Shown: positions 9,867-61,763, counted from the stretch's first letter. The stretch is DNA of 64,000 bases from Polaromonas sp. (GCA_043740415.1 JAYUCJ010000152.1:2758-66757), one strand, 5' to 3'. Numbers and translations are program-made. Notes: generated from the sequence alone by a model not told the origin.

Positions 9867-11951
9867 ATGACTAAGCCGCACAAGCGTGATTTAGCCGAAC
9901 TGCTAGAAGCCGTTGATCTAGAAGCGCCACTGGCGCAGCGGCATTTGTGGTTGATAGCATTGTTCACGTGGATTCGTGGTGATGCCAAATCGGTCAGTGC
10001 TGCCATCAACCGCTTGCACTTGCTGCTGGATGTGGCGCAATCGCGCCCACAGCTGCAAACGCGTTTACGCCAGTGGTGGCACCAGCTGCTGCAAATTGTT
10101 GATGCTTCCAGTTTGCTAGCGGATTATGGTTTTGCACAACGCAGCGCCTTTGTGAGTGAACTGACCGAGCGTATACGCTTGAAACTGCTGCCTGCCACGC
10201 CTGAGACGACAGACGCTGCGGTGCTCTTCTCCCTCGTTTTATCCCATAGTTTTGACCAGCTGTGGCTGGCCGAACTGGATGAAGCGACGTTGGCTCGCAT
10301 TGCGGACTTGTTAGAGACACCCGACATTGGCGACAGTGCCAGCACCCAAACCAGCTATTGGCAAAACACGGTGCTGGAAGCCATCACTTTTTGTGTGGGC
10401 CACATTCGATCCAGCGGTTTTTCTCCCGAGCTGCGCACGCGCATGAGCCCCGCTGCCGTACAAGACAGGCCTTTTCATTGGCTGGATGCAGAATTGGATG
10501 CCTTGCGCGCTGCTTTTTTAGCGACCCGTACGGGTGCAGCGGAAGATGCAATGGCCAATGCCGAGGCGCTGCAACACGCTGTCACCGAATTTCGTAACTG
10601 CTTAGACGCCTGCCGCCAAGCTGCAGGCACCGTGTACACGCATTTGGACGAACACGGCATTTCCGTCAGCCTGGTTTTCCGCCTGCGCGAGATGCGGGCG
10701 CGGGTGCTGCGCGTGCGTGAGTTGTTGGATTGTTTGCTGTCAGACCGACCCAACAGCTACACCGCCAAGCTGCTGTCGCACTTGGTCAAAATTGGCGTGC
10801 ACAGGCGCAGTGTGCGCGATTTGATCACTTCGAACACCACGCTGTTGGCCGCCAAAATGGCGGACCGCAGTGCCGAGACGGGTGAAAACTACATCACCCG
10901 CAACCGCGCCGAATACTGGGACATGCTGCGCAAAGCGGCAGGCGGTGGCGGCATGGTGGCCATCACCATTTTGGTGAAATACCTGCTGCTGGCTATGGGC
11001 TTTTCCGCCTTTTGGGGCGGCTTTTTTGGCGGTGTGAATTACGCGCTGAGCTTCATCGCCATCCAATTGTTGCACTGGACGCTAGCCACCAAGCAGCCCG
11101 CCATGACCGCGCCCGCCATGGCCGCCAAGCTGAAAGACTTGAGTGGCGACAACGAGGTGGCGTCTTTCGTCGACGAAGTCACCCACGTGGTGCGCTCCCA
11201 AGTCGCCGCTGTGTTGGGCAACTTGGCTTTGGTCGTTCCTTGTGTACTGCTCATCAGCTATTTGATGCAGCTGGGCTTGGGCAAACCATTGATTGACCAA
11301 GCCGAAGCGAAGCATGCTTTGGCATCACTCACGCTGCTGGGACCCACGGCTTTGTTTGCCGCAGCAACGGGTGTGGTGCTGTTTTTATCCAGCATTTTTG
11401 CGGGCTGGGCGGAAAACTGGTTTGTGCTGCACCGTTTGGACTCGGCCATGCGTTTTAACCCGCGCATCACGGCGGCCATTGGCGAGACGCGGGCGGAGCG
11501 CTGGGCGCAGTTCATGCGTAAAAACATATCGGGTTTTGCCGCCAGTGTGTCCTTGGGCATGATGCTGGGTTTGATACCTGCGATTTCCGGGTTTTTGGGC
11601 TTCGGGCTGGAGCTACGCCATGTGACCCTGTCCACCGGGCAGATCGCAGCAGCCGGTGCATCGTATGGCTGGGATGTGCTGCATGTGCCCGAATTGCGTG
11701 AAGCTTTGTTGTGGGCGATTGCGGGTATTTTCGTGATTGGGCCGCTCAATGTGGGTGTCAGTTACTATTGTGCTTTTAGATTGGCATTGCGGGCGCACAA
11801 TGTCAGCGTGGGCGAGCGCAAACGTATTCGCAGCGCCGTGTGGGAACGCTTGAATTATTTTCCACTGAGTTTTTTATGGCCGCCAAAAGAAGCTAAAAAG
11901 CCAGAAGCTATACCACCAGAAGACAAGCAGCCGGAAGAAACGAATACTTAA
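9867..11951 (+). CDS. Membrane protein of the family nominally called site-specific recombinase (SpecificRecomb/Gcr-like)
   Basis: 694 aa. N-terminus resembles family members (DLAELLEAVDLEAPLAQRHLWLIALFTWIRGD). Several TM segments in the C-terminal half. No Tyr/Ser recombinase motifs seen. Confidence 0.5.
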   Translation: MTKPHKRDLAELLEAVDLEAPLAQRHLWLIALFTWIRGDAKSVSAAINRLHLLLDVAQSRPQLQTRLRQWWHQLLQIVDASSLLADYGFAQRSAFVSELTERIRLKLLPATPETTDAAVLFSLVLSHSFDQLWLAELDEATLARIADLLETPDIGDSASTQTSYWQNTVLEAITFCVGHIRSSGFSPELRTRMSPAAVQDRPFHWLDAELDALRAAFLATRTGAAEDAMANAEALQHAVTEFRNCLDACRQAAGTVYTHLDEHGISVSLVFRLREMRARVLRVRELLDCLLSDRPNSYTAKLLSHLVKIGVHRRSVRDLITSNTTLLAAKMADRSAETGENYITRNRAEYWDMLRKAAGGGGMVAITILVKYLLLAMGFSAFWGGFFGGVNYALSFIAIQLLHWTLATKQPAMTAPAMAAKLKDLSGDNEVASFVDEVTHVVRSQVAAVLGNLALVVPCVLLISYLMQLGLGKPLIDQAEAKHALASLTLLGPTALFAAATGVVLFLSSIFAGWAENWFVLHRLDSAMRFNPRITAAIGETRAERWAQFMRKNISGFAASVSLGMMLGLIPAISGFLGFGLELRHVTLSTGQIAAAGASYGWDVLHVPELREALLWAIAGIFVIGPLNVGVSYYCAFRLALRAHNVSVGERKRIRSAVWERLNYFPLSFLWPPKEAKKPEAIPPEDKQPEETNT

Positions 11952-15676: not shown

Positions 15677-16072
15677 TCACCCTATCAGCACCATTCCCGC
15701 CAACTTGGCAGCCGCTTTGTCAAATGTCATCGTGCGATGACAACCTGCATGAGCGCATAAACGCTCGATCAAACAATCTGAAAAATCTGCCTTGCTGTCG
15801 GCATACATACGTACTGCGCTAGCGACAACTGCTACGCGGTCAAGCTTGATACTATCTAGTGACATCAAGGTTTGCATCACCTCTACAAATTGCTGACGAG
15901 TGACGCCATACACCGATTCAAACACCCAGTTCAACTCAGCGACAGTCGCCAAAGTCACATAGCCAGGTGACGATTCATCCAAGCTATCAATGAGCGAATT
16001 AGACAGTGCGGACTGCTTGTCGTCGTCTTGCGTGATGTAGCGTACAAGGACGTTGGTGTCTAGACCGATCAT
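15677..16072 (-). CDS. vapC: PIN-domain toxin (VapC family)
   Basis: MIGLDTNVLVRYITQDD.... 131 aa. Overlaps the upstream antitoxin gene by 4 nt. Confidence 0.85.
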   Translation of the reverse strand: MIGLDTNVLVRYITQDDDKQSALSNSLIDSLDESSPGYVTLATVAELNWVFESVYGVTRQQFVEVMQTLMSLDSIKLDRVAVVASAVRMYADSKADFSDCLIERLCAHAGCHRTMTFDKAAAKLAGMVLIG

Positions 16073-16341
16073 TTGGCAGTGCCAGTACCTAAACCTAATC
16101 CAGCAGCTGCGCCGCGCTTGGCGATTGCGGCATTCATCTCCTCTATGGATACAGGCTTTGTGGGTTTAGCAATCATGCCTTTGAGTGCGGTAACTGGTAA
16201 TTTTTGCTCGGTTTTAAACGTAAATCCCCCCGTAGGTGAGACTTCAAACGCAATCCGATCACCCGCGCCCAGCTTGAGTGCGAACCGAATTTCTGCTGGA
16301 ATGGTGATTTGACCTTTGGATGTGATGGTTGCGGTGATCAT
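16069..16341 (-). CDS. vapB: AbrB/SpoVT-type antitoxin (VapB/MazE-like)
   Basis: TITSKGQITIPAEIRFALKLGAGDRIAFEV is a swapped-hairpin AbrB-like motif. Confidence 0.85.
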   Translation of the reverse strand: MITATITSKGQITIPAEIRFALKLGAGDRIAFEVSPTGGFTFKTEQKLPVTALKGMIAKPTKPVSIEEMNAAIAKRGAAAGLGLGTGTAK

Positions 16342-22674: not shown

Positions 22675-23613
22675 ATGCTCGATATAACCCGCGCCACTTT
22701 TGAAACCGACATCGTCCAAGCGTCGATGACCACGCCCATTTTGGTCGATTTTTGGCACCCCAAGAGTGAACAATGCGCGGTCATCGTCCCGCTGTTGGAA
22801 AAGCTGGAAGCTGACTATGCGGGTCGCTTCATGTTGGCGAAAGTGGACGCCAGCCAAGAGCAAGAAATTGCGGGCGCATTTGGCGTGCAGAGCATTCCGA
22901 CCTGCATTTTGATGATGGGCGGCAAGCCGGTGGATGGTTTTCAGGGTGCGCAGCCAGAGGACAAACTCAGAGAATTTTTGGACAAGCACCTGCCACCAGC
23001 TTTAGAGTCAGAACCCGAAGAGCCAGAAACCGCTGAATTTGCTGAAATAACCCCAGAAATGGCGCTGAACAAGCTGGTAGAAAAACTCAAAGCCGCCCCC
23101 GAAGACGAAACCGCCCGATTCGATTTGGTCAAGCTGCTGATGATTTTAGGCCGCGACGACGACGCCAAAATCGCCTTCGCCCCCGTGATCGCCAAAACCA
23201 GTGTGGTGCGCAAATTTGACTCACTCAAACGTTGGATGGATGCTGTAGACACTATACATTTGATAGCACCTCAGGCAACAAATACGCCGGCTACAGTCGA
23301 AAATAAGGCATTAAATGACCATGCAGACCAACTGGAAGCCAAAATCATCGCCAACAAACGCGATTTTGAAGCCCGTTTCGCCAAAACCCAGCTTTTGATG
23401 GCGCAACAGCGTTGGACAGAGGCGATGGACGAGCTGCTAGAAATCTTGATGCGCGACAAAACCTGGAACGACGACCAAGCCCGCAAAACCTACATCGCCA
23501 TTCTGGACATCATCGAACCCGCCCCCGTGAAAGTGGCAGATGGACAGATTCCGCCTGTAGATGCGACGGTGGCGACGTATAGGCGGAGGTTGTCTAGTGT
23601 GGTTTTGAGTTAA
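22675..23613 (+). CDS. Thioredoxin-fold plus TPR co-chaperone (YbbN/CnoX-like)
   Basis: Thioredoxin-like N-domain with SEQC in place of CxxC (VDFWHPKSEQCAVIVP). TPR-like C-terminal half. Contains an in-frame R45 copy. Confidence 0.75.
   Translation: MLDITRATFETDIVQASMTTPILVDFWHPKSEQCAVIVPLLEKLEADYAGRFMLAKVDASQEQEIAGAFGVQSIPTCILMMGGKPVDGFQGAQPEDKLREFLDKHLPPALESEPEEPETAEFAEITPEMALNKLVEKLKAAPEDETARFDLVKLLMILGRDDDAKIAFAPVIAKTSVVRKFDSLKRWMDAVDTIHLIAPQATNTPATVENKALNDHADQLEAKIIANKRDFEARFAKTQLLMAQQRWTEAMDELLEILMRDKTWNDDQARKTYIAILDIIEPAPVKVADGQIPPVDATVATYRRRLSSVVLS
23252..23296 (-). repeat. R45 repeat, inside the ybbN-like CDS (in frame)
   Basis: ctatacatttgatagcacctcaggcaacaaatacgccggctacag. Read as ...TIHLIAPQATNTPATV... 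Confidence 0.75.
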
Positions 23614-23719
23614 GCTGTGGGTAATGTTGCAATGTTTACCGTATAAATTGAGTGATCTCGTACATACCCTATATTGACTGATTCACATATAAAGCCCAGA
23701 TTCATTTAGAAAGATATCC

Positions 23720-24469
23720 ATGCGTCTTCAAATTGCGATTTACTCACTTTTGATCCTAGCTCTTGCCGCTTGCAAGCCTAGCAACGAAATAGTGACAACT
23801 AAGGCTACTACTGAGCTAAAACCCGCGGCTTTGCCTACGGCGCCAATAAAAAAATCGGATTGGGAGAATGCAATAAAGGCGACTTACGAAAAAAGTCAAA
23901 TTAATACTGATAAAGAGGGTGTGACTGAGTTTGTGGCTTGCTTCCAAACCAAAGATGGAAATAAATGTACTGGGTCTGTGTTTGGAAAACACGATGTATT
24001 TCGTCACCTCACAATCTTTACACCAGCAAATTCGGAAAGTGCAGCTCTTGGCATATGGAAGTATCTTCATTCGTATGTATCGCTTATTGATTGCAAGCGT
24101 CCTAGTGTTCTACTATCACCTCATATCTTTTCGAAAGAAGGATGGCTATTTATGGATAAGGTGTCAGTTTTAGCTGACGGTGAATTACTTTTGGAACACA
24201 AATTCACAAGTACTGAGGTTGATCGCGATAACAATACATGGGGAATTGACGAAAGAGCGCATTGGGTAGCGTCAGACAATGATCTTAGCGCGTTAAAGCG
24301 AATTGCCAGTGCCAAAGTAATTATCGTCCGCCTTTCGGGTGCCAAGGGCTACGTCACTGTTGCTGAAAAAGATATTAGCCGCATTAAAGAAGACTTCAAA
24401 AGCGTACTAGCAATATATAGCGTGCTCGATGCCGCCGCAGCTAGTAAAGAACCAGCTGAGTGTATTTGA
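23720..24469 (+). CDS. Hypothetical lipoprotein (AT-rich island)
   Basis: 249 aa. Signal peptide with lipobox LALAAC. No family recognised. Confidence 0.55.
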   Translation: MRLQIAIYSLLILALAACKPSNEIVTTKATTELKPAALPTAPIKKSDWENAIKATYEKSQINTDKEGVTEFVACFQTKDGNKCTGSVFGKHDVFRHLTIFTPANSESAALGIWKYLHSYVSLIDCKRPSVLLSPHIFSKEGWLFMDKVSVLADGELLLEHKFTSTEVDRDNNTWGIDERAHWVASDNDLSALKRIASAKVIIVRLSGAKGYVTVAEKDISRIKEDFKSVLAIYSVLDAAAASKEPAECI

Positions 24470-24650
24470 TTGGTTATCTTCTATAACTCAGAGCTTAATC
24501 TCAATTTTGCTGATCAACCTAGTTCAAACCGCGTAACACTTGGTGGCAGGTTTTTTTTCGCTAGAAATCTTGATACGCGAAAAAAACCTAGAGCGACGAT
24601 TACATTAATCGGTAAAGCTCAGGCTTTCATTTCTTGTGTGAGGTGTATTT

Positions 24651-25667
24651 ATGATTTTTTATAAATATTACAGTTTTAGCTCAGGAATAGCTGCCCTTAG
24701 CAGCCAAAAGCTCGGTTTTCGGGAACCCAAATACTTCAACGACCCATTTGAGCTAAGTTACCTTAACAACTCCAGTGACTCAAATTTTATTGAAGACAAG
24801 ATGAACTCGCTAAAGAAGAGCCTAGTCATACTTTCATTAACTAAAACCTATAGCAACCCATTAATGTGGGCTCATTATGGAGAGGATCATAAGGGTTTCG
24901 TAATTGGTTATGACATTGACGATGATTTTTTTCTTTCTCAAAAATACAACGTTATTACAGCAGCCGAAGGTAAAGTTTCATATACCAATAAGAAAGAAAA
25001 AATCATAATTTCCGAAAAATTAAAAAATGTTTTACACGAAATTTACTTGATAGGAGAAGGCAAGATATCCAGCCACCTTAAATCGAAATTATTATTATCC
25101 ATTTTGAAGAAGGCACTTTTATACAAACACTCGTCATGGGCTTATGAAGAGGAAGTTAGAGTTATCAAAGTCTTAGATTCCAAATTCAAAGAATCTGAGG
25201 AGTGGCAATCCGACCCAAACAGAGCTTTTTCTTCATTTAGCAAATCTGTGGCTCCAGGAATTGAAACGATTTCAATTCCTGGACTTTACTTATTTAACAA
25301 GGAGGTAAAAATTAAAGAAGTCTACCTTGGCATGCGTAATCCTTTATTGAGTCCTCATATTCAAACAAGTGATCCGATTGAAAGTCGTGATATCTACGAA
25401 CAGTCTAAAAAGCATTCGTGGTGCGTAAAAAAAATGTCTATGGCTAGCGGCTCTTGGGAGCTTGAAGGCCATGATATAAATCGTGAACTATTAATGATTC
25501 GAAAGCAGACTAGAGGCCTTATTAGGTCATTGGCTTTTAGCGGCTTAGAGGCTGAGTACCTATGCAGGACTCTTCCGCTAAACTTGGATAGCGTTGAAGA
25601 TAGATATGAATTAACCAACTGGTATGACAGAATCGAGCTTAAAAGAAATGGTGAGTTTGTCACCTAA
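24651..25667 (+). CDS. DUF2971-family protein
   Basis: N-terminus FYKYYSFSS...LGFREPKYFNDPFE and SLTKTYSNPLMWAHYGEDHKGFVIGY are signatures I associate with DUF2971. Confidence 0.7.
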   Translation: MIFYKYYSFSSGIAALSSQKLGFREPKYFNDPFELSYLNNSSDSNFIEDKMNSLKKSLVILSLTKTYSNPLMWAHYGEDHKGFVIGYDIDDDFFLSQKYNVITAAEGKVSYTNKKEKIIISEKLKNVLHEIYLIGEGKISSHLKSKLLLSILKKALLYKHSSWAYEEEVRVIKVLDSKFKESEEWQSDPNRAFSSFSKSVAPGIETISIPGLYLFNKEVKIKEVYLGMRNPLLSPHIQTSDPIESRDIYEQSKKHSWCVKKMSMASGSWELEGHDINRELLMIRKQTRGLIRSLAFSGLEAEYLCRTLPLNLDSVEDRYELTNWYDRIELKRNGEFVT

Positions 25668-25880
25668 AAAGGCCTTAGTTTGTAAATTCTCACTCCGTCA
25701 ACCACCTCCTAGCCTCTTCTCTTTCTACTTAGTAAATAGCGTTTTTTTTGATCACACAAGTTAGCATGTACGTACTGATACTGACACTGACACTGACAAT
25801 AATATAAGTCCCCTTAAAAGTTCTAATCTTTATAAAAAACTACAATTGCTCGATAAGTTTTTAATAACCCAAGGATAATC

Positions 25881-26357
25881 ATGAAAATATTTGCAGGCAT
25901 CGTTGGCGGTCTAATTTTGGCCATCCTCGGAGCAATCTTCTTTACAGTTGGTGGCGCATCAAGCCCTGGACGCGGTAGTGGATTTGGTGCAATCGCATTC
26001 TGTGCATTCTGGATAGTTGGAATAATTGTTGCTGTAAAGGCCCCATCTCCAGCGAAAGCTTGGCGAAGATTACTGATAACATCTGCAATCGCTTCATTTA
26101 TGCTGCCACTAGCAGGAATCATATTTACGAGTTCACAAGTCGCAAATACTATCGAGAAAGGCGGCGAGTACGTTGAAGCAGCAGCAACTGGAGCCGCAAT
26201 TGGTGGAACACTTATCTCTGGTTTTATGGGATTTGTAGGTTTTTTTCTAGGATCAGTATTTCTAATTATTGGGTTACTCGTAGGTCGAGATAAACAGATA
26301 ATCTACATCCAATCGCCTCCGCAAAAACCAGATACTGAACCCGTCAATCACGTCTAA
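25881..26357 (+). CDS. Hypothetical 4-TM membrane protein (island cassette)
   Basis: 158 aa, Gly-rich TM segments. RBS-like aaggataatc lies before the ATG. No family recognised. Confidence 0.5.
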   Translation: MKIFAGIVGGLILAILGAIFFTVGGASSPGRGSGFGAIAFCAFWIVGIIVAVKAPSPAKAWRRLLITSAIASFMLPLAGIIFTSSQVANTIEKGGEYVEAAATGAAIGGTLISGFMGFVGFFLGSVFLIIGLLVGRDKQIIYIQSPPQKPDTEPVNHV

Positions 26358-26361
26358 ACTC

Positions 26362-26394
26362 CTTGATACTTCACGCCGCCTTCTCAATCACCTT
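26362..26394 (+). repeat. Decayed copy of the purC 3'-terminal sequence (copy D)
   Basis: cttgatacttcacgccgccttctcaatcacct, versus the purC end cttgatacttcgccgccgtcttctcaatcacct. Confidence 0.65.
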
Positions 26395-26451
26395 TGATTG
26401 AATACAAGCGCATTGACAAACTTATAAAGTGAACACATAATATGTGCAAAA

Positions 26452-26691
26452 ATGGAGTTTGCAATGAACATCACCTTATCAATCGACGAACGCGTGGCTG
26501 AAAATGCGCGTGAGGCTGCTCGCAAAATGGGGAAAAGCTTGAACCAAGTGGTGCGTGACTATTTGGAGCAATTGGCCGGCACGGCGCATGCTGAGCAAGA
26601 CTTTGATGCGTTTGAACAGCGTTGCTTGAACACCAAAGGACGCTTGAACCATTGGACCTTCAACCGCGAAGAAGCCAATGCCCGCCATTAA
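26452..26691 (+). CDS. Ribbon-helix-helix-type antitoxin (VapB-like)
   Basis: NITLSIDERVAENAREAARKMGKSLNQVVRDYLEQLAG. Overlaps the downstream PIN gene. The start may be at 26464. Confidence 0.7.
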   Translation: MEFAMNITLSIDERVAENAREAARKMGKSLNQVVRDYLEQLAGTAHAEQDFDAFEQRCLNTKGRLNHWTFNREEANARH

Positions 26692-27178
26692 TACAGGCAG
26701 TGCCAAGCCGCCTACCGCGCAAGAAGCAAGCGCAGCGTATTTGGCTATATACCAGCCACTGGCAAAAGAACGCTGCTTCATAGACACCAATTTGCTGATT
26801 TATGCAGACAGTGGGGACGAGCCCGTCAAACAGCGCATCGCCTTGTCTTTGCTTAAGCAGCTTAGACTGAATCAAACAGGCGTGTTGTCAACCCAAGTGC
26901 TGAACGAATACTGCAACGTAGCGCTCAACAAACTGAAGCTACCACATGCCGATATTCGTGAGCAAATGCAATTTTGGGAGCAATACGAAGTTGTCCAAGT
27001 GACCCCAGCCATCATCCACATGGGGCTAGACTTGCACCAAACCCGATCTCTAGGTTTTTTTGACGCGCTGATTGTCGCTGCCGCCAAAACCAGCGGCTGC
27101 ACCGTTCTGTATTCTGAAGATATGAATGCGGGTGAGATGGTGAACGGGGTACGGATTGTGAACCCGTTCAGGCTTTAG
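26678..27178 (+). CDS. PIN-domain toxin (VapC family)
   Basis: CFIDTNLLIYADSGDEP...FFDALIVAAAKTSGCTVLYSEDM. The start codon is uncertain. Confidence 0.75.
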   Translation: MPAINTGSAKPPTAQEASAAYLAIYQPLAKERCFIDTNLLIYADSGDEPVKQRIALSLLKQLRLNQTGVLSTQVLNEYCNVALNKLKLPHADIREQMQFWEQYEVVQVTPAIIHMGLDLHQTRSLGFFDALIVAAAKTSGCTVLYSEDMNAGEMVNGVRIVNPFRL

Positions 27179-27218
27179 TTAGCCACTTTAGAGCGTCAAC
27201 TCGTCAACGCTTCAGCCC

Positions 27219-27279
27219 GTCAACCGCGTCCAAGCCTTTAGATACTTCGCCGCCGTTTCTCAATCACCTCGCGTGGCAC
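27219..27279 (+). repeat. Copy of the purC 3'-terminal sequence (copy C)
   Basis: gtcaaccgcgtccaagcctttagatacttcgccgccgtttctcaatcacctcgcgtggcac. Confidence 0.8.
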
Positions 27280-27322
27280 ACAATTTCTTGCATCAAGTTA
27301 GCATTTATGCTAACATTTACCT

Positions 27323-27649
27323 ATGGCATTTGCAATCAACTACTTTCATGCACGTGTGCTGGCAGAAATTGAATCTTGGCCTGTGGATGTTGTTGCTGAC
27401 TATGCCCGCCTTGTTGAATTGCTGATTGAACATGGCCCAAGTCTGCGGTTGCCGCACTCGCGGGCTTTTGGTGATGGGCTTTTTGAGCTTCGACCCAAAG
27501 GCAGATCAGGCATTGGGCGAGCGTTCTACTGTTACATGCAAGGTAAACGGGTCATCGTTTTGCATGCCTTCATCAAGAAATCTCAACAAACGCCTGACAA
27601 CGATCTAAAACTTGCCCGCAAACGCTTAAAAGAGGTGCAACATGGCTGA
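27323..27649 (+). CDS. RelE/ParE-superfamily toxin (HigB / phage Gp49-like)
   Basis: LFELRPKGRSGIGRAFYCYMQGKRVIVLHAFIKKSQQTPDNDLKLARKRLKE. Confidence 0.8.
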   Translation: MAFAINYFHARVLAEIESWPVDVVADYARLVELLIEHGPSLRLPHSRAFGDGLFELRPKGRSGIGRAFYCYMQGKRVIVLHAFIKKSQQTPDNDLKLARKRLKEVQHG

Positions 27650-27956
27650 ACTGAAATATGAACCTGTAACGCATAACCATAAACAATTTTTGGCGAAGGC
27701 TAACGAGCGCAAAGGCTTTCAAGAGGCCTACGACGCGCTAGAGTTGGAATACAAGGTTACCAACCAAATGCTGAAAGCGCGTTCACGTGCAGGGCTGACG
27801 CAAGATGCTGTTGCCGAGCGCATGGGCACGACCAAAAGTGCCATTTCAAGGCTTGAAGCGGCGGGAAAACATGCGCCATCTTTATCAACCTTGAAGCGCT
27901 ACGCGCAAGCTGTGGGCTGCGAGCTGCAAATTAGACTTGTGCCGCAAAAGGCGTAA
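27642..27956 (+). CDS. XRE-type HTH antitoxin (HigA-like)
   Basis: LKARSRAGLTQDAVAERMGTTKSAISRLE. Overlaps the toxin gene by 8 nt. Confidence 0.8.
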   Translation: MAELKYEPVTHNHKQFLAKANERKGFQEAYDALELEYKVTNQMLKARSRAGLTQDAVAERMGTTKSAISRLEAAGKHAPSLSTLKRYAQAVGCELQIRLVPQKA

Positions 27957-28022
27957 GTCAACCGCGTCCAAGCCTCTTGATACTTCGCCGCCGTTTTCTC
28001 AATCACCTCAGACAGCACGCGG
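27957..28022 (+). repeat. Copy of the purC 3'-terminal sequence (copy B)
   Basis: gtcaaccgcgtccaagcctcttgatacttcgccgccgttttctcaatcacctcagacagcacgcgg. The 45-nt core differs from the genuine purC end at one position. Confidence 0.85.
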
Positions 28023-28104
28023 AGTTCGGGGCTGATTTATCCGATTTGACATCTACGTTGTAATTCATACAATGCAATGTATTACAACGCAATGGATTTC
28101 TACC

Positions 28105-28353
28105 ATGACAGCACTTGCACAAACGCGGACAATCAATGTACGTGTGCCTATCACCGTATTCGACCAATTGGAAGAGCTCGCGAAAGCCACAGCACGAACG
28201 AAGAGCTTCGTCACGGTTGAAGCCCTCTCCAGCTACTTGGATGCGCAAGCTTGGCAGATTCGAGAGGTCACGGCGGCGCTTGAAGAAGCAGAGAGAGGCG
28301 AATTTGCCACTGACGAAGAGGTAAACGCGGTATTTGCGAAATATGGCGCTTGA
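28105..28353 (+). CDS. CopG/RHH antitoxin (ParD-like)
   Basis: RTINVRVPITVFDQLEELAKATARTKSFVTVEAL. Start taken at MTALAQ (track ORF begins 28072). Confidence 0.75.
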   Translation: MTALAQTRTINVRVPITVFDQLEELAKATARTKSFVTVEALSSYLDAQAWQIREVTAALEEAERGEFATDEEVNAVFAKYGA

Positions 28354-28369
28354 ATATTCAGCTTAAAGA

Positions 28370-28648
28370 ATGGAGCTTAAATTACGTTGGTCAAAACGAG
28401 CACTAGGCCGCCTCGACACCATCACCGCCTACATCGCCAAAGACAACCCTACACGCGCCGAGAGCTTTGCAAAGGAGCTTAGGAAAAAAGTGACTATTTT
28501 GAAGTCACATCAACTCGGAACAGCTTGGCAAGTTTTTGGCACTAAACAATATGTGCTACATCCGAACTACATTGCGATCTACCGAGTCGTGCGAGATGAA
28601 GTCCAGATATTGACGATTTTGCATGCAACGCAGGAACGGCAAGATTAG
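28370..28648 (+). CDS. RelE/ParE-family toxin
   Basis: [33 protein letters not shown]...[22 protein letters not shown]. The stop codon overlaps the convergent purC stop. Confidence 0.8.
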
Positions 28649-29550
28649 CCTGTCAGCCTAGTCCAAGCCTCTTGATACTTCGCCGCCGTCTTCTCAATCA
28701 CCTCGCGCGGCACGCGGGGGGCTGGGGGGGTTTTGTCCCAGGTTTGGGTTTCTAACCAGTCGCGGACGAACTGTTTGTCGAAACTTGGGGGATTTTTGCC
28801 TTCTACATAACTCTCCAGCGGCCAGAAGCGGGATGAATCTGGCGTTAGCACCTCGTCCATCAGGGTCAGCGTGCCATCCGCGTCTAAACCAAACTCAAAC
28901 TTGGTGTCGGCGATGATGATGCCTTTGGTCAAGGCGAATTCATAGGCGGTTTTGTAGATGGCGATGCTGAGGGTTTTGATTTTCTCGGCCAAATCGACAC
29001 CGATTTTGTCGCACATCTGCTCAAAAGTGATGTTTTCGTCGTGCTCGCCCACAATCGCTTTGGCGGCGGGGGTGAAGATGGGTTCGGGGAGTTTGGAGGC
29101 ATTTTTTAGATTAGCGGGCAGTTTGACGCCGCAAACCGATTGCGACACTTGGTATTCTGCCCAGCCGCTGCCCGCCAAATAGCCGCGCACCACGGCTTCC
29201 ACAGGGATGGGTTTGAGACGTTTCACCAGCATGGAACGACCGGTGACGTAAGGGACTTCGCTAGGTAAGACGGCGCTTTCAGGCGATTCGCCCGTCAAAT
29301 GATTTGGGCACAGATTCGCGCCGTTTTTACCCAGCTTTTCAAACCAAAACAGCGCCATTTGCGTGAGCAATGCGCCTTTACCCGGAATCGGCTCACCCAT
29401 GATGACGTCAAACGCGCTCAGGCGATCGCTGGCGACCATCAAAATGCGGTCGCTGCCGACGGCGTAGTTGTCGCGGACTTTGCCTCGAGCCAGAAGGGTC
29501 AGAGAAGTCAGATTAGAAGTGTGAACCGAAGTAGGCTGCGCTGAAGTCAT
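28645..29550 (-). CDS. purC: Phosphoribosylaminoimidazole-succinocarboxamide synthase
   Basis: GKVRDNY...[10 protein letters not shown]...[10 protein letters not shown]. 301 aa (long form). Confidence 0.9.
28655..28717 (+). repeat. Genuine purC 3'-terminal segment that is the template of repeat copies B-D (copy A)
   Basis: agcctagtccaagcctcttgatacttcgccgccgtcttctcaatcacctcgcgcggcacgcgg. Encodes ...[19 protein letters not shown] on the minus strand. Confidence 0.85.
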
Positions 29551-53711: not shown

Positions 53712-55193
53712 TTGAGGATGTCAACGCAGATGTTATTTTTTCGCCCCGAAGTCATGCAGTCACAAGCCAGCCAATGGCTAGGCGTTGTACGCTTGCACAG
53801 ACCCTTGTCGTTCGGCTTGATCACTGCAACAGCCATCGGCGTTGCACTTTTGTGCATCACATTTGCAACGTGGGGCGAAGTCAACCGTAAATCACGCATT
53901 TCTGGCTTGCTCGTTTCTTCGTTAGGCAGCCTGAATATAGCCGCACCGCTGGCCGGTGTGTTGGTCGAAAGCCGGATTTCTGAAGGCCAAACCGTACAAG
54001 CGGGTGACGTGCTGTTCGTACTCAACACCGAGCGCCAAAGCACGGCGGGCGACACCAACGCCCTGACTCTGATACACATCGAAGCCCGCAAGCAAACCCT
54101 GAACACCGAGCGCGGCCTGCGCCAGCTGCAAACCAGTCAACGCAGCCAAGTGCTAGAAGACCGCATTCGCACGCTGAATGCCGAGCTATTGCGCCTAGAC
54201 GAAGAGCAAAACCTGCTAGAAAACCGCATCACCCTGTCCAAGAAGACACTTGCACGCAGCCAAAAATTAGCTTCCGAGGGCTTTTTGTCTGAAGCTCAAG
54301 TACAAACCAACCAAGAAGAACTCATAGACCTCAACAGCCGCCAACAAGCCCAAGCCCGCAGCAAACTCAGCACCCAGCGCGACCTACGCACACTCACTGG
54401 CGAAGCCGAAGGTCTAGCCACCCAACTCAAAGCAGATTTAAACCAGCTAGCGCGCAATGTGTCGCAGCTCAACCAAGAAGCCACAGAAACCACCGCCCGC
54501 AAAAGCACCCTCATCACCGCGCCCTACGCTGGCACCATCACCGCCTTTAACCTGCAAAACGGCCAAGCCGTGCAGGCGGGGCAAACCTTGGCGACGTTGG
54601 TGCGTACAGAAACCACATCTCCGATGCTCACCACAGAAAAAGTCAGGTTGAAAATCTCCGGCTACAAGATGACGACGTTACTTTCGACGCCAAAAAATAC
54701 CGTTCGCCCTGAGCCTAACATTCCATCCGTTCGCCCTGAGCCTGTCGAAGGGTTCACCGCCAAAGCAGAGCCACAAGCCCCGCAATCCCTCCAAGCCCAC
54801 CTCTACGCCCCCAGCCGCACCGCCGGCTTCCTCAAACCCGGCCAGTCCGTCTACATGCGCTACGCCGCCTACCCCTACCAAAAGTTCGGCCTACAAACCG
54901 GCCACATCACCGCCATATCCGCCACCCCCTTCTCCGCCAGCGAGCTACCCCCCAACATCGCCCAGCAGCTCATCGCGCAATCTGGCAGCAACGAAGCCCT
55001 CTTTCGCATCAACGTGCGGCTAGACCAGCAAACGATTACCAGCTACGGCGAGCCGCTGCAACTCAAAGCAGGGCTAACGCTAGAGGCCGATGTGCTGCAA
55101 GAACGCAGAAAGATATGGGAATGGGTGCTAGAGCCGCTGCTTGCGGCTAAGGCGCAATTGAAGGTTTTGAACTCGAATCCAAATAAAAATTAA
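53712..55193 (+). CDS. HlyD/CvaA-family membrane-fusion (adaptor) protein for peptide export
   Basis: FRPEVMQSQASQWLGVVRL + TM + lipoyl-like hairpin (ISEGQTVQAGDVLFVL) + long coiled coil + beta-barrel (APYAGTITAFNL..GQAVQAGQTLATLV). Carries an in-frame PAL element. Confidence 0.85.
   Translation: MRMSTQMLFFRPEVMQSQASQWLGVVRLHRPLSFGLITATAIGVALLCITFATWGEVNRKSRISGLLVSSLGSLNIAAPLAGVLVESRISEGQTVQAGDVLFVLNTERQSTAGDTNALTLIHIEARKQTLNTERGLRQLQTSQRSQVLEDRIRTLNAELLRLDEEQNLLENRITLSKKTLARSQKLASEGFLSEAQVQTNQEELIDLNSRQQAQARSKLSTQRDLRTLTGEAEGLATQLKADLNQLARNVSQLNQEATETTARKSTLITAPYAGTITAFNLQNGQAVQAGQTLATLVRTETTSPMLTTEKVRLKISGYKMTTLLSTPKNTVRPEPNIPSVRPEPVEGFTAKAEPQAPQSLQAHLYAPSRTAGFLKPGQSVYMRYAAYPYQKFGLQTGHITAISATPFSASELPPNIAQQLIAQSGSNEALFRINVRLDQQTITSYGEPLQLKAGLTLEADVLQERRKIWEWVLEPLLAAKAQLKVLNSNPNKN
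54700..54755 (+). repeat. PAL-family element (tandem left arms) in frame within hlyD
   Basis: ccgttcgccctgagcctaacattccatccgttcgccctgagcctgtcgaagggttc. Read as ...TVRPEPNIPSVRPEPVEGF... Confidence 0.8.
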
Positions 55194-55698: not shown

Positions 55699-55773
55699 AT
55701 CTAAATTATAAATTCTGTTTTTACGCATTTGGCAGTAAATTTTTTATAAATGCGGTATTTAGAAAGAGTAGTT

Positions 55774-56031
55774 ATGAAAGAATTATCGATTGAAGATTTA
55801 GCAGAAGTCGCCGGTGGAGGAGCATTGACCACAGCTGGGAAATGGATGCTAAACCAACTTGCTGGCTGGGGATTTACGGAAGCAGTTGTCGAAGGCGTTA
55901 AATATGTAATGGACAATGAGGGCGGCTGGTTTACTCCTGGCGCTGCCAACGACGGTGGCGGTTCGTCTCCGTACGTTTGCGATGCTAACGGCTACTGCTA
56001 TACCAATAATCAGTATAGCTGCTCTGCATAA
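55774..56031 (+). CDS. Double-glycine-leader peptide 1 (class II microcin/bacteriocin-like precursor)
   Basis: 85 aa. The 15-aa leader MKELSIEDLAEVAGG is spaced like the ColV leader MRTLTLNELDSVSGG. About 70-aa Gly/Trp-rich core ending PYVCDANGYCYTNNQYSCSA. RBS-like aaagag upstream. Confidence 0.75.
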   Translation: MKELSIEDLAEVAGGGALTTAGKWMLNQLAGWGFTEAVVEGVKYVMDNEGGWFTPGAANDGGGSSPYVCDANGYCYTNNQYSCSA

Positions 56032-56051
56032 TAAATTTGCTTAAATAAAAA

Positions 56052-56075
56052 TCCAAAGATGTGCACATCTTTGGA
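56052..56075 (+). terminator. Perfect 12-bp-arm hairpin after the peptide 1 gene (no T-tract)
   Basis: tccaaagatgtg/cacatctttgga, 20 nt after the stop codon. Confidence 0.35.
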
Positions 56076-56099
56076 TAATACAACTTTAATATTACCAAT

Positions 56100-56327
56100 A
56101 TGCATAGAATGATTAGTGGAGTACTGTCGTTTATTAGAAGCAGTCAAACATCACCGTACAATACTTCTAATGCTATACAAACGGCAGTCTTACAGGCATA
56201 CGCAGCGCGCGTGAAACTAAGCAATGATACACATGGCGATACCGCACTACACATCAATCAACATATTCACAAACCAGCTCTCTCTGAAAACAGTGACTGC
56301 AAGCGCTTATGGCAGCAATATAGTTGA
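56100..56327 (+). CDS. Hypothetical 75-aa ORF
   Basis: Open frame in an AT-rich region. No motif, no TM, no obvious RBS. Confidence 0.25.
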   Translation: MHRMISGVLSFIRSSQTSPYNTSNAIQTAVLQAYAARVKLSNDTHGDTALHINQHIHKPALSENSDCKRLWQQYS

Positions 56328-56426: not shown

Positions 56427-56465
56427 ATACTAAAACAAGTACACATTAAATATTCTAAAATTACT

Positions 56466-57386
56466 ATGCGAATTTTAAATTTTTTATACATTACTTCTGC
56501 ATTAACGGTATTGGTTGGTTGTGTATCACCCATACAAACACCAGAAGAGGTTAGTAGAAATAATGACTTATTAGCTACTCAGATATTGCAATCAAAAAGC
56601 AAGAGCAGTCAAACTATACAAAATAAATCTCTCGATAATACTCCAACCATACAAAGGGTATCAGGTATTTACTTTGGATTAGCACTCGATGGTGTATCGC
56701 CAGCTTTTGAGGGTGATATTAAGCGAGTACAAAATTTATTTTTTGACGAAATTGCTAAGGGTCCTAGCTTGCTACTCAGCAATTCCGAAACAAATGAACA
56801 AATATACCCACGTGCGGATTTCAGAACCATCCCAGAGGCAGCAAAGGCTGTAGGGAATTACCGTGTTGAGCCCGATATCGGGTTAACAACACCGGGCCTA
56901 AAAGTGGTAGTTGTTTCATCACACGGCAGAGAAAAGCACTTGCGACTACGTGTAGGAAAAAATCGGATCCAAGGCGAAGTAAGTGATGCTTACCTCTTGA
57001 AACTACTTGCTGATATTGATGGCTCAAGCAAAACTCCTACGCTGTTGATTATTTCAGCCTGCCACTCGGGCTCTTTTATTCCACTTCTTGCTGCGCCCAA
57101 TAGAATTATCATGACGGCAGCAGCCAGTGATAAATTATCATTTGGCTGTGGCACAGATTCTAAAAATACGGCATTTACTGAACACTTACTAGATCAAAAC
57201 ATTGACACGAAATTATCATTGCACAATCTTTTTGATAGTGCTTTAAAACGTATTTCCGATTTTGAAATAAAAATGAAAATCGCAACCTCATCACCACAAA
57301 TATCTGTGGGTGCAAATATGCAGAGATTGTATGAAGCACGCATTGAAGAGTGGGATAAAATTTTAACCAAAGAAAGAAAAGATTAA
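56466..57386 (+). CDS. Lipoprotein, clan-CD cysteine peptidase (C13/legumain-like family)
   Basis: Lipobox LTVLVGC. His-Gly ... Ala-Cys dyad context VVVVSSHG...LLIISACHSGSFIPLL, followed by IMTAAASDKLSFGC as in bacterial C13-family proteins. Confidence 0.65.
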   Translation: MRILNFLYITSALTVLVGCVSPIQTPEEVSRNNDLLATQILQSKSKSSQTIQNKSLDNTPTIQRVSGIYFGLALDGVSPAFEGDIKRVQNLFFDEIAKGPSLLLSNSETNEQIYPRADFRTIPEAAKAVGNYRVEPDIGLTTPGLKVVVVSSHGREKHLRLRVGKNRIQGEVSDAYLLKLLADIDGSSKTPTLLIISACHSGSFIPLLAAPNRIIMTAAASDKLSFGCGTDSKNTAFTEHLLDQNIDTKLSLHNLFDSALKRISDFEIKMKIATSSPQISVGANMQRLYEARIEEWDKILTKERKD

Positions 57387-58370: not shown

Positions 58371-58631
58371 ATGGAGCAACTTAATAAATCAACATTGTCA
58401 TTAATATTGGGGGGCAATAACGTCCCGGGAAAAGTGCCGGCAGCTGTACTCGCATCAATGACGCAAGTATCCAGTAGAGTAAGTGATACATTACGGATTA
58501 TGAATACGCATGACGATGCCGCGCCATACTGCAATCAATATTTACACGTGGCTATTGCTCCAAAAAACGGTGACCGCAACGCCTTGGGGCAGCAATATAG
58601 CTGGGGCACTTGGTGGGATGATACACATTGA
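58371..58631 (+). CDS. Double-glycine-leader peptide 2 (class II microcin/bacteriocin-like precursor)
   Basis: 86 aa. Strong RBS aaaggagg 7 nt upstream. The 15-aa leader MEQLNKSTLSLILGG has hydrophobic residues at -4, -7 and -12. Core ends GQQYSWGTWWDDTH. Confidence 0.75.
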   Translation: MEQLNKSTLSLILGGNNVPGKVPAAVLASMTQVSSRVSDTLRIMNTHDDAAPYCNQYLHVAIAPKNGDRNALGQQYSWGTWWDDTH

Positions 58632-58797: not shown

Positions 58798-59649
58798 ATG
58801 AAAATTCTTCCAACCGATTTCGATGGTCAATCTATCCGCCGCGTGTATGACGAGGACACTGAAATGTGGTGGTTTTCTGTGGTGGACGTGGTGCAGGTGC
58901 TGACGCAGCAGGCTGATGACTTGACGGCTCGCAAGTACTGGAATCAGCTGAAACGCAGGCTTGAGAATGAAGGCAGCCAACTGGTGACAGACTGTCACCA
59001 GTTGAAAATGACAGCGGCAGATGGCAAACAACGCTTAACAGATGCTGCAAGCGCCGAAACTTTGCTGCGTCTCGTTCAATCCGTCCCCAGCCCCAAAGCT
59101 GAACCCATCAAACTGTGGCTAGCTAAAACTGGCTATGAGCGTATGCAAGAAATGGCAGACCCTGCGCTGTCTTTGAATCGTGCCCGCGAAACGTGGGAGC
59201 AACATGGGCGTAGCGACAAATGGATTCAGCAACGGATGACGGGACAGGAAACCCGCAACAAATTGACTGACTATTGGCGTGAGCACGATGTCAAACCTGG
59301 TCAAGAGTTTGCTATTTTGACCAATATCATCCACCAAGCTTGGACAGGCGTAAGCGTCAAAGAGCACAAAACTGCTAAGAATCTGACTAGCCATAACCTG
59401 CGCGACCACATGACTGAAGCAGAGCTTATTTTTACAGCTCTGGCTGAGCTATCTACGCGGCAGATTGCAGAGAACCGCCATGCAACGGGTTTACCCGAAA
59501 ATGCCACGGCCGCCAAAGTGGGTGGCAGTATTGCACGCCAAGCACGTCAGCAGCTAGAAAGCGAAACGAGCAAATCAGTGGTGACTAGCAGCAACTACTT
59601 GCCGCCAAAGAATACTAAGCTTCTCAAGCCCCAAAAACCGTCACCTTAA
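58798..59649 (+). CDS. Bro-N domain protein (DinD / phage antirepressor-like)
   Basis: FDGQSIRRVYDEDTEMWWFSVVDVVQVLT is a Bro-N signature. 283 aa. The stop overlaps the ABC start (TAATG). Confidence 0.7.
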   Translation: MKILPTDFDGQSIRRVYDEDTEMWWFSVVDVVQVLTQQADDLTARKYWNQLKRRLENEGSQLVTDCHQLKMTAADGKQRLTDAASAETLLRLVQSVPSPKAEPIKLWLAKTGYERMQEMADPALSLNRARETWEQHGRSDKWIQQRMTGQETRNKLTDYWREHDVKPGQEFAILTNIIHQAWTGVSVKEHKTAKNLTSHNLRDHMTEAELIFTALAELSTRQIAENRHATGLPENATAAKVGGSIARQARQQLESETSKSVVTSSNYLPPKNTKLLKPQKPSP

Positions 59650-61763
59650 TGCGCATCATCATTCAATCCGAAGCCAGCGAATGCGCGCTGGCTAGTTTGG
59701 CTATGGTTTGCAGTGCGCATGGGCTGCAGGTGGATTTGGCGGATTTGCGGCGGCGGTTTGTGGTGTCTATCAAGGGCGCTACCATGCAGCAGCTGGTGCA
59801 GCATGCGGATGGGCTGAACTTTAGCTCACGCCCGCTGCGGTTGGAGCTGGATGAGCTTAGCCAGCTTCAACGGCCCTGCATTTTGCACTGGGGGCTGAAC
59901 CATTTTGTGGTGTTGGTCAAGGTGCGTAAGAACCACATCGTGATTTACGACCCTGCGGTGGGTGAGCGGCGGGTGGTGATGGAAGATGTGTCGCGGCACT
60001 TCACGGGTATTGCGCTGGAATTAACGCCGAATGCCAGTTTTGAGCCTAGCGACCAGCGACAGCGGGTGTCGCTTGCGGCGCTGACTGGTAAGGTGCTAGG
60101 GCTGAAGCGTTCGATGTTTCAGATATTTGCATTGGCCATGGTGTTGCAGCTTTTTGCCATTGCCGCACCGCTGTTGAACCAGCTGGTGGTGGACGATGCG
60201 ATTGCGACGTATGACAAAGATTTACTCTCGGTGCTGATTGTTGGTTTTGCCTTGCTGATGTTGATTCAGACTTTGCTGGGCTTGGCGCGTAGCTGGATGG
60301 TGATGGCGCTGAGCATGTCGCTTAGCCTGCAGTGGACGAGCAATGTGTTTAGCCACCTGCTGAAGCTGCCGATTGAGTATTTTGAAAAACGGCATTTGGG
60401 CGATGTGGTGTCGCGCTTTGGGTCTGTCAATACGATTCAAAAAACGCTGACAAGCAGCTTGATTGAAGCGGTGCTGGACGGGTTGATGAGCGTTGCCGCA
60501 CTGGGCATGATGCTGCTATATTCGCCGCTTTTGGCCGCCGTGGTAGTGGGCGCGGTAGTTATCTATGCGCTTTTACGCTGGGCGATGTACAAACCTTTTC
60601 GTGATGCGAGTGCGGAGCGTTTAGTGGTAGCTGCTAAAGAGAATACGCATTTTCTAGAGTCGCTTCGCGCCATCACGCCGCTGAAACTCTTTGGGCGTGA
60701 AAACGAGCGCCGCGCACGCTGGCAAAACCTGCTGATTGATGTACAAAACCGCGACATCAAAACCGCCAAAATGGGCATCGCGTTCAGCACGGCAAACACG
60801 TTTATTTCTGGCATTGAAAACTTGGTGGTACTTTGGTTGGGGGCAGGTTTGGCAATGCAAAGCTCGCCACAAGGACAAAGCAGCTTCACCATTGGTATGC
60901 TGTTTGCCTTCATCAGCTACAAAGGGCAGTTTTCTAGCCGCATGGCGACCTTGATTAACTACTTTGTTGAAATCAAAATGCTGGGCTTGCATGCAGAGCG
61001 TTTGGCAGATATTGCGCTGACTGAGCCTGAAAAAGACGCCGTACCTGACAACACGTTGCAGCATCTTGAACCCAAAATTGAACTCAAAAACGTAAGTTTT
61101 CGCTACGGGGAAGGTGAGCCTTGGCTACTGAAAGAAACCAACGTGGTGCTCAACGCCGGGGAAAGCGTGGCGATTGTGGGGGTGAGTGGCTGCGGTAAGA
61201 CGACTTTGTTGAAGCTTATTTTGGGTTTGCAGCAAGTGGTGGAAGGGGAAATTTTGTACGGTGGCATCCCCGTCAAACAACTGGGATTACAAAATTACCG
61301 CAAATTGATTGGTACGGTGATGCAAGAAGATGTTTTACTGGCTGGCAGCATTGCAGAAAATATCAGCTTTTTTGATGTTCACTTTGACATGGAGCGGGTG
61401 CAAACATGTGGTCAACTCGCGGCAGTGCACGACGACATTGCGCGTATGCCTATGGGCTACCAAACTTTGGTGGGGGATATGGGTTCTGCTTTGTCGGGCG
61501 GGCAAAAACAACGTGTTTTGCTAGCCCGCGCTTTGTACAAACAGCCGAAAGTGCTGGCTTTGGATGAAGCGACCAGCCATTTAGACATCACCAATGAGAG
61601 ACGAGTGACACAAACTTTGACGCAAATGAGCTTGACCCGCATCATTGTGGCGCACAGGCCCGAGACGATTGCTGCGGCGCAGCGGGTGATTGCTTTAGAG
61701 AATGGAAAAATAATTGAGTTGCGACCGGCAGCAGCGTTTGAGAGCTTACAAGAAGCGGCATAA
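59649..61763 (+). CDS. Peptidase-C39-domain ABC transporter (PCAT, CvaB-like bacteriocin/microcin exporter)
   Basis: N-terminal C39 domain QSEASECALASLAMVCSAHG (catalytic Cys) ...HFVVL. 6-TM domain. Walker A GVSGCGKTT, signature LSGGQKQR, Walker B VLALDEATSHLD. Confidence 0.9.
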   Translation: MRIIIQSEASECALASLAMVCSAHGLQVDLADLRRRFVVSIKGATMQQLVQHADGLNFSSRPLRLELDELSQLQRPCILHWGLNHFVVLVKVRKNHIVIYDPAVGERRVVMEDVSRHFTGIALELTPNASFEPSDQRQRVSLAALTGKVLGLKRSMFQIFALAMVLQLFAIAAPLLNQLVVDDAIATYDKDLLSVLIVGFALLMLIQTLLGLARSWMVMALSMSLSLQWTSNVFSHLLKLPIEYFEKRHLGDVVSRFGSVNTIQKTLTSSLIEAVLDGLMSVAALGMMLLYSPLLAAVVVGAVVIYALLRWAMYKPFRDASAERLVVAAKENTHFLESLRAITPLKLFGRENERRARWQNLLIDVQNRDIKTAKMGIAFSTANTFISGIENLVVLWLGAGLAMQSSPQGQSSFTIGMLFAFISYKGQFSSRMATLINYFVEIKMLGLHAERLADIALTEPEKDAVPDNTLQHLEPKIELKNVSFRYGEGEPWLLKETNVVLNAGESVAIVGVSGCGKTTLLKLILGLQQVVEGEILYGGIPVKQLGLQNYRKLIGTVMQEDVLLAGSIAENISFFDVHFDMERVQTCGQLAAVHDDIARMPMGYQTLVGDMGSALSGGQKQRVLLARALYKQPKVLALDEATSHLDITNERRVTQTLTQMSLTRIIVAHRPETIAAAQRVIALENGKIIELRPAAAFESLQEAA

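Follow-up and report, generated by a model that had tools for sequence, protein, structure and literature searches.

Small toxin–antitoxin cassettes stacked between displaced copies of the purC 3' end in Polaromonas sp.

Gene content of the purC–ybbN interval

We analysed a stretch of 64,000 nt of Polaromonas sp. DNA (GCA_043740415.1, JAYUCJ010000152.1:2758-66757), hereafter called the window, in which ~5 kb of co-oriented plus-strand genes lie between the SAICAR synthetase gene purC and a convergent ybbN-like gene (Table 1). The organism is a betaproteobacterium of Comamonadaceae type, and the gene order purC→ ←ybbN purE purK is conserved synteny in the Comamonadaceae. In the window, short cassettes occupy the interval, and between them stand direct repeats of the last ~60-90 nt of purC, all in purC orientation, which we label blocks A to E from the functional gene end outward. 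An earlier note on this DNA had attributed these repeats to serial site-specific integration at the purC terminus, each event regenerating the gene end and pushing older scars outward.

By family and arrangement, the interval is predicted to hold three type II toxin–antitoxin (TA) pairs: a PF05016 toxin with a RelB-like antitoxin (ParDE), a PF05973 toxin with an HTH_3 antitoxin (HigBA), and a PIN toxin with an RHH antitoxin of the DUF6364 family (RHH-PIN). The remaining genes encode a membrane protein with four transmembrane (TM) segments, a lipoprotein, and a DUF2971 protein. Pfam searches recovered the cassette content listed in the earlier note (PF05016 ParE, PF05973 Gp49/HigB with HTH, PIN with RHH, and DUF2971), and the overlap it described between the ParE and purC stop codons was found at 28646-28648 and 28645-28647, respectively. 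The GC content was 0.52-0.62 in the flanks, 0.48-0.51 in the TA cassettes, and 0.33-0.43 in the distal genes.

The lipoprotein and DUF2971 genes had been counted in the note as a fifth cassette. Their content was read correctly. This segment, which is swapped for other genes in two further array types described below, is better read as DNA once downstream of the oldest purC end than as one more cassette of the same kind. The DUF2971 protein matched five PDC-S31 models of PADLOC (best E=7.5e-24), and this distal part of the interval may be a defence gene.

Table 1 Features of the purC–ybbN interval in the window (ORF, open reading frame).
Feature	Position	Strand	Remarks
ybbN-like thioredoxin/TPR gene	22675..23613	+	Fixed outer boundary of the hotspot; array variants all diverge directly past its stop
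Low-GC segment (lipoprotein and DUF2971)	23614..25689	+	Beyond the probable oldest purC end; GC 0.33-0.43; PF11185
Lipoprotein	23720..24469	+	
DUF2971 protein	24651..25667	+	PF11185; PADLOC candidate defence family PDC-S31
Block E, probably the oldest relic	about 25690-25722		Distal ~30 nt only, in-frame stop
158-aa membrane protein (4 TM)	25881..26357	+	No family match
Block D, older decayed purC end	26338-26393		Overlaps final 20 nt of the 4-TM ORF
Near-consensus promoter, RHH-PIN cassette	26413..26441	+	11/12 match; 20 nt after block D
RHH (DUF6364) antitoxin and PIN-domain toxin	26464..27178	+	Pfam
Block C, displaced purC end with stop codon	27212-27279		1-nt deletion in the window, intact in strain L083
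HigB (Gp49/PF05973)-HigA (HTH_3) TA pair	27323..27956	+	Pfam
Block B, displaced purC end	27957-28038		Native-type codons; flush with higA stop; lacks last 2 codons and stop
Near-consensus promoter, ParDE cassette	28046..28073	+	11/12 match; 8 nt after block B
RelB/ParD-like antitoxin, 82 aa	28105..28353	+	NF048017, E=1e-9
ParE/RelE-family toxin	28370..28648	+	PF05016, E=6e-13; TIGR02385
purC (SAICAR synthetase), target gene	28645..29550	-	PF01259, E=3e-75
Block A, functional purC terminus	28645-28733		Inside purC; core 28659-28703; stop-proximal ~18 nt recoded, ParDE-linked

Repeats of the purC terminus

The similarity among the blocks is highly significant. A 33-nt core occurred twice exactly, against 0.00 occurrences expected in shuffles, and a profile of purC ends detected A (E=3e-27), B (4e-26), C (2e-20), and D (2e-8). 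Shuffles and profile E-values thus exclude chance similarity, and the alignment bears out the copies B, C, and D of the earlier note. The 43-nt purC core reads GTCCAAGCCTCTTGATACTTCGCCGCCGTYTTCTCAATCACCT. Core identity to A dropped with distance from purC, from 42/45 in B to ~37/45 in C, which has a 1-nt deletion, and ~35/45 in D, the gradient of decay that the note had seen. Decay does not account for every difference, however, since the functional end A is itself synonymously recoded relative to B and C.

Translated in the purC frame, block C of L083 gave an almost perfect PurC tail including the stop; block B gave a PurC tail followed by 18 codons into antisense higA, and block D was broken. 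Judged by these readings, the blocks are true purC termini. Block E, which the note had flagged as a possible vestige near 25693-25740, matched the distal purC end at 19 of 22 positions, scoring above 1000 of 1000 shuffles and all 271 control segments from the window. It fell below detection in the purC-end profile search (E=3), and we rate it as a probable relic of a purC end.

The inner edges of the blocks lie ~33, 56, 68, and ~91 nt from the stop, so that block length grows with recency. This could reflect erosion or different mimics of the gene end. In a gene of 906 nt, all inner edges fall 33-91 nt from the stop; for three junctions placed at random, P is about 3e-4.

The recoded terminus of the functional gene

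The working gene end A reads ACT AGG CTG ACA GGC TAA, which encodes the same amino acids as the native end with five synonymous differences in the last five codons. Every readable purC without ParDE had the native type, ACG CGG TTG ACG GGY TGA or close variants, and the displaced blocks B and C also carry native-type terminal codons. The recoded form was found only in ParDE-containing arrays. No polymorphism was seen across strains from 27897 to 28686; host-linked sites begin at 28687 or 28702. Since A is recoded and linked to ParDE while the displaced ends are of native type, the newest cassette supplied a gene end of its own. The incoming element thus restored the gene and the older end moved outward, as had been proposed.

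These codons also bear on a different origin of the repeats, in which they are long target-site duplications or local tandem duplications, produced by staggered breaks or replication slippage, and no element carried a purC end. Small-scale slippage does occur here, as an 8-nt duplication AGCCTGTC in L083, L084, and L091. However, both copies made by duplication should begin as native; here the functional copy carries the five non-native differences and the displaced copies are native-type, and the inner arm of B is not a copy of the adjacent purC. Long target-site duplication is ruled out, the functional copy being the non-native one, and we consider the duplication origin as a whole very improbable. 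The 8-nt duplication itself lies at the ParE-stop/purC-stop overlap (L083 8279-8290; window equivalent 28646), where it separates the two stops, and is explained by slippage between two AGGCT repeats.

The inner arm of block B (28009-28038) was still purC-like (19/30 matches, reached by 0 of 20000 shuffles) but is non-functional, with an in-frame stop codon and residues that no PurC shows. The mimic has been kept functional only in the half that turns into the gene end, which fits a repeatedly integrated unit and not a one-off donor copy. Block C differed between array types, and its junction on the higB side, AAATTGTGTGCC, was constant. The three versions of C were native-type and mutually different up to 5 nt from this junction, a pattern that fits a crossover at a defined point rather than crossovers spread through the homology.

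Arrays in relatives and distant loci

The window's own population was represented by contigs from several European Nucleotide Archive (ENA) and Logan samples, in which three array types were found; the source samples include ENA ERZ27315235, ERZ27314322, and ERZ28573536. Type 1 is that of the window. In type 2 a 101-aa membrane ORF, and in type 3 a 96-aa ORF with a DUF1643 gene, replaces 23613-27209. All three types share the order C-HigBA-B-ParDE-A. The blocks outnumber the cassettes by one, as successive insertions would leave them, with two cassettes and three blocks in type 2 and four cassettes and five blocks in the window. Exact-protein look-ups with HigB and PIN returned the same three array types only, and no array of the same population without ParDE.

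The close clade, defined by PurC proteins 88-97% identical, showed other states of the same site. It was empty in L095 and L096, with a 91-nt gap, and held a single unrelated gene in others: a GNAT gene in L092, a 250-aa gene in L093/94, and a 222-aa gene in L098-100. Locus L097 had an array without ParDE, in the order purC, 110-nt hairpin spacer, HigAB, PIN-RHH, 92-aa ORF, and ybbN. The empty site and differing contents are thus those that the earlier note had expected of relatives. In L097 the spacer between purC and higA (9918-10030) contains a 22-nt inverted repeat, CGTTCGCCCTGAGGTATCGAAG / CTTCGATACTTCAGCGCGAACG, which is absent from the window and may be a REP-like (repetitive extragenic palindromic) element or a bidirectional terminator.

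The distant comparison comprised 159 purC loci, 80 from species-level genomes and 79 from metagenomes. The best species-level PurC match was 78% identical (a Rhodoferax metagenome-assembled genome), and the 79 metagenome loci were among the matches listed, all at <=78% identity, with the close clade outside that sample. The arrangement purC→ ←ybbN was common in the distant loci, with gaps from 12 nt to 8.6 kb. No repeats of a locus's own purC end were found in the 80 species-level genome loci or the 79 metagenome loci.

Cassettes as minimal units

Each unit measures 0.6-0.9 kb and consists of a promoter and a TA pair or one gene. The gaps between blocks and genes are 0-60 nt, and the higA stop abuts block B; there is no room for arm-type sites between cassettes and blocks. 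ParDE paralogues at an unrelated locus share DNA with the window only over 28046-28641, the stretch between B and A, and the homology of L097 to the window covers RHH-PIN at 26412-27185 and HigBA at 27284-27961. No remnants of larger elements, such as integrase or transfer gene fragments, were found among ORFs of at least 40 aa or Pfam hits. Judged on this layout, the cassettes are minimal and self-promoted.

Such units might be stumps of full-size islands, namely an integrative and conjugative element (ICE), an integrative and mobilizable element (IME), or a prophage, each once equipped with a purC-specific integrase; they would then be classical cis-mobilizable elements (CIMEs). Published accounts derive integrase-less tandem elements in this way (PMC5704250, PMC3146451), and TA pairs, which make up three of the four cassettes, resist deletion. 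On the other hand, the cassettes are flush with the blocks on both sides, the 0-60 nt holding only a promoter, the searches for integrase and transfer fragments were empty, and the ParDE paralogues at the unrelated locus have the same module limits. In islands at tRNA genes or gene ends, an integrase normally adjoins the intact target gene; here the toxin stop codon occupies that place. The gene tables of close relatives showed no evident integrase beside purC (the distant loci were not scanned for integrases), and the 159 distant loci had no purC-end repeats. An origin from decayed islands therefore appears improbable.

The nearest ParE homologues had been considered as a possible donor context at another purC. 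They sit instead between NUDIX/TctC and aspS as bare modules, and no gene-end mimic was found beside the paralogue module at this locus. The same locus (L190 4364-4666 and 7262-7565; L191 2656-2959) carries a repeat of a REP-like 57-mer with the 3' 242 nt of the NUDIX gene. The two NUDIX copies are 92% identical, 2.9 kb apart, and lie beside a Y1/RAYT-like transposase ORF; in this island of a related bacterium, too, a fragment of a gene's 3' end has been displaced.

Age order and present-day recombination

Block B, the spacer, and ParDE were 100% identical in every contig, across backgrounds that are 3-12% divergent. In L087, for example, purE and ybbN were 88-89% and purC ~94% identical to the window, and ParDE was still 100% identical. 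HigBA divergence was 1.5% for type 1 against type 2, ~9% for the 5' part of the L087 higB, and 9.4% for L097. RHH-PIN differed by 6-7% in L097 (93-94% identical), and the most decayed blocks were D and E. Divergence and decay together indicate that position tracks age, with the newest cassette next to purC, in agreement with the order given in the earlier note.

Homologous recombination has shaped the region as well. Both purC alleles occurred with both type 1 and type 2 arrays, in all four combinations, and purC is a mosaic in which a 480-nt tract (28687-29167) is 3-7% divergent between otherwise identical flanks. Within the close PurC clade, the internal indels GVNG, EASFK, MSQGGEG, and HIKTAD were shuffled among alleles (P0001-P0050). 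At least one ParDE transfer, that of L087, is by its tract limits a case of homologous recombination. Today the array behaves as a chromosomal island, passed from strain to strain by ordinary homologous recombination via the genes on either side. What speaks for cassette-wise insertion is therefore of a structural and historical kind and does not concern present movement.

How the cassettes may have entered purC

Insertion of a circle with one purC-like block into the resident purC end (Campbell-type insertion) is the only simple topology that would produce the new gene end together with the cassette and the displaced former end. The reading we prefer is serial Campbell-type insertion of purC-mimic circles catalysed by a trans-acting site-specific recombinase, and we hold it with confidence balanced evenly between acceptance and doubt. 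Four small circles would have entered the purC 3' end in succession, each carrying a promoter, one gene or a TA pair, and a purC-terminus mimic. A crossover inside the common ~45-nt core would land the cassette between the purC body and the old purC end; the mimic would become the new functional gene end, and the old end would be displaced towards ybbN and decay there. The 4-TM cassette would have come first, followed by RHH-PIN, HigBA, and finally ParDE next to purC, and block E with the DUF2971 and lipoprotein genes would represent the oldest purC end with the DNA downstream of it. We infer a circular intermediate and an enzyme, probably a tyrosine recombinase, supplied from elsewhere in the genome or by a helper element. 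A trans-acting recombinase is favoured because the inner edges are clustered at 33-91 nt, C is native-type to within 5 nt of the junction, and the mimic is asymmetrically conserved.

RecA-dependent Campbell integration would give the same topology without a dedicated recombinase. A cassette could loop out between its flanking blocks, or a circle could form from a related strain's fragment with a cassette downstream of purC, and the circle would re-enter by a single crossover between its 45-90-nt purC-like block and the resident purC end. This would agree with the absence of an integrase from the window and related arrays, with the absence of recombinase-type site features (hairpin, dyad, dif), and with block lengths that vary from 33 to 91 nt as if each circle had carried a different homology. 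The heavy recombination in the population (the four allele and array combinations and the 480-nt purC tract), the arrival of ParDE in L087 by homologous recombination, and a second terminus duplication in the window, 79 nt long and 99% identical around a small insert, point the same way. However, 33-68 nt of homology is near or below what RecA uses efficiently, and longer purC fragments would integrate better, yet the four inner edges are all <=91 nt from the stop. The three native-type versions of C would need crossovers at the very edge of the homology every time, and the inner arm of B has drifted while its other half is intact, implying a long-lived mobile unit and not a one-off by-product. 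We regard the RecA route as rather unlikely, with a real claim to attention nonetheless.

Several observations weigh against serial insertion by a trans-acting recombinase. No tyrosine or serine recombinase or known integrase family was found among the ORFs of the 64-kb window, as the earlier note had remarked, and none stood beside ~15 related arrays. Attachment (att) site features were equally lacking: DNA folding z-scores were -2.0 to +1.0 on both strands of A-D, which gives no attC-like hairpin; the best dyads in the core were no better than in shuffles; and no dif-like site matched within three mismatches of an E. coli dif consensus, the XerD arm being absent from the array. The unequal block depths (33, 56, 68, and ~91 nt) define no single fixed att boundary. 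No free or attP form of the cassettes or block was found in viral contigs, PLSDB plasmids, or phage records. No strain differing by one precisely excised or added cassette was seen, and strains vary at the distal (ybbN) end of the interval, not next to purC. This distal variation needs either independent insertion of HigBA (with or without ParDE) into different native ends, or a distal swap in which the recombination tract ended at C. One ancestral relic, decayed along different lines, could also account for the three versions of C. The ParDE tract of L087 starts inside higB (~27550) and ends in block A (~28700), and not at block B. Finally, L097 has HigBA and RHH-PIN with the same limits and without blocks C and B, with only ~17 nt where C is expected and the 110-nt hairpin spacer in place of a flush purC junction. 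The missing blocks of L097 may reflect secondary deletion, as a weak match to the inner edge of C remains. The earlier proposal is partly supported: serial accretion at the gene end stands, and site-specific catalysis is putative, no conserved dyad, hairpin, or dif-like site having been found.

The sole recombinase-family hit in the window was a 694-aa PF10136 'site-specific recombinase' protein (9867..11951, plus strand, E=3e-213), 11 kb away. The gene is conserved in this neighbourhood and was found as well in relatives whose purC–ybbN site is empty or holds a single gene. Its presence is not correlated with arrays, and it was set aside as a weak candidate only.

Comparison with known accretion systems

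A literature search for purC as an attachment site returned nothing relevant, and purC is not known to have been described as a target of this kind. Accretion of units in tandem at a target gene's 3' end is established, and its integrase-less members are CIMEs; the elements related to ICESt1/ICESt3 at fda of Streptococcus thermophilus are an example (PMC5704250). Like these, the purC units are arranged head-to-tail at the 3' end of one housekeeping gene, are bounded by gene-end direct repeats (A-D, and probably E), contain no integration or transfer genes, and would arrive through an att site that includes the gene end. Unlike them, the purC units measure 0.6-0.9 kb instead of kilobases to tens of kilobases, the array has no remnants of larger elements and no cis integrase in the array or the window, and the repeats of 33-91 nt have unequal inner limits. 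An origin of these CIME-like units from a decayed ICE or IME found no remnant genes in its favour, and the nearest ParDE relatives are bare modules at another locus.

The ssrA islands of Dehalococcoides are also tandem, each ending in a direct repeat that copies ssrA's 3' end, and some that lack integration modules have been proposed to be cis-mobilized (PMC3146451). Both systems place tandem units downstream of one essential single-copy gene, and in both the strains vary in number and content. The ssrA islands are ~10 kb or more, about half have a serine-recombinase module (dsiB), and their repeat has a constant length of 20 bp and an insertion point that has been mapped (PMC3146451); the purC repeats vary in their limits and the units have no such module.

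With chromosomal integrons the array shares one orientation, short cassettes with their own promoters, many of them TA pairs, related repeats of ~60-130 nt between cassettes, the newest cassette nearest the insertion point, and independence from a recombinase within the cassettes. In contrast, there is no IntI, attI, or Pc, the repeats are a coding gene end with neither attC hairpin folding nor R/L box symmetry, and insertion is at the purC stop-codon region. The integron-like outcome named in the earlier note holds for the one-orientation cassette array; the defining integron features IntI, attI, Pc, and attC hairpins were not found.

In the orphan modules of cdiA and rhs, an incoming module takes over the 3' end of a gene and pushes the former end downstream. 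The resulting relic arrays, in which each module starts with a fragment of the main gene, are analogous to the displacement of gene ends at purC. Those modules, however, are the gene's own C-terminal toxin domains and move by homologous recombination in long conserved coding sequence; the cassettes studied here bear no relation to purC itself, and the repeated part is just ~45-90 nt of the gene end. In pdif modules and IMEX, host XerCD acts on 28-bp dif-like XerC/XerD sites. These are likewise small integrase-less modules, often TA pairs, with short sites and a recombinase encoded elsewhere, but no dif-like sequence was found in the blocks or the window. We class the purC locus as tandem accretion at the 3' end of a gene in a miniature form without an integrase, CIME-like in structure and integron-like in outcome. 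It is set apart from the compared systems by the size of its units, their purity, the lack of a cis recombinase, and purC as the target.

Other repeats and toxin–antitoxin genes in the window

A 79-nt direct repeat, 99% identical, lies at 58235-58313 and 59647-59725. The second copy makes up the beginning of a C39-peptidase ABC exporter gene (59649..61763), and the first forms a pseudo-start, MRVIIQSEASECALASLAMVCSAHGL. Between the copies lie a double-glycine (GG) bacteriocin-like ORF (58371..58631) and a Bro-N protein gene (58798..59649). The repeat is a duplication of a gene start around a small insert and may be the same kind of Campbell insertion. Nearby, 55750-58700 contains tandem-like units of ~986-1290 nt (repeat families D2, D4, and D8) with small ORFs that have GG-leader-like N-termini. 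The units adjoin genes for an HlyD-type protein (53712..55193), a C13 peptidase-like lipoprotein (56466..57386), and the ABC exporter, and the region resembles a bacteriocin locus whose precursor/immunity units are duplicated.

A REP-like family of 52-56 nt occurs on the plus strand at 2303, 2756, 5926, 56373, 57663, and 58649, and inverted at 12706, 15623, and 23252. The copy at 23252-23303 is inside the ybbN coding region, and similar matches occur inside ybbN of relatives. Beside another copy lies a further pair on the minus strand (15677..16341), a PIN toxin (131 aa) with an AbrB/SpoVT-like antitoxin (90 aa), without gene-end repeats.

Implications for small-module mobility

We also put forward, tentatively and as a possibility only, that the locus is a working non-integron cassette platform, at which a recombinase from elsewhere, possibly the host's, recognises its attachment site in the last ~45 nt of purC. 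Minimal circles of a promoter, a TA or defence gene, and a mimic might then be shuttled in and out of the purC end, and the purC stop-codon region would be an attI-like stockpile for addiction and defence modules.

If the cassettes are truly mobile, they would represent a second way, besides integrons, to stack very small modules at one chromosomal address, and that address would be the end of an essential-pathway gene that the incoming DNA must rebuild. TA pairs would then travel as integrative units of less than 1 kb that carry only a mimic of a gene end. If the array is now a fossil, it would still be a clean natural record of serial gene-end displacement, in which displaced gene ends, homologous recombination, and addiction modules shape a hotspot between conserved convergent genes.

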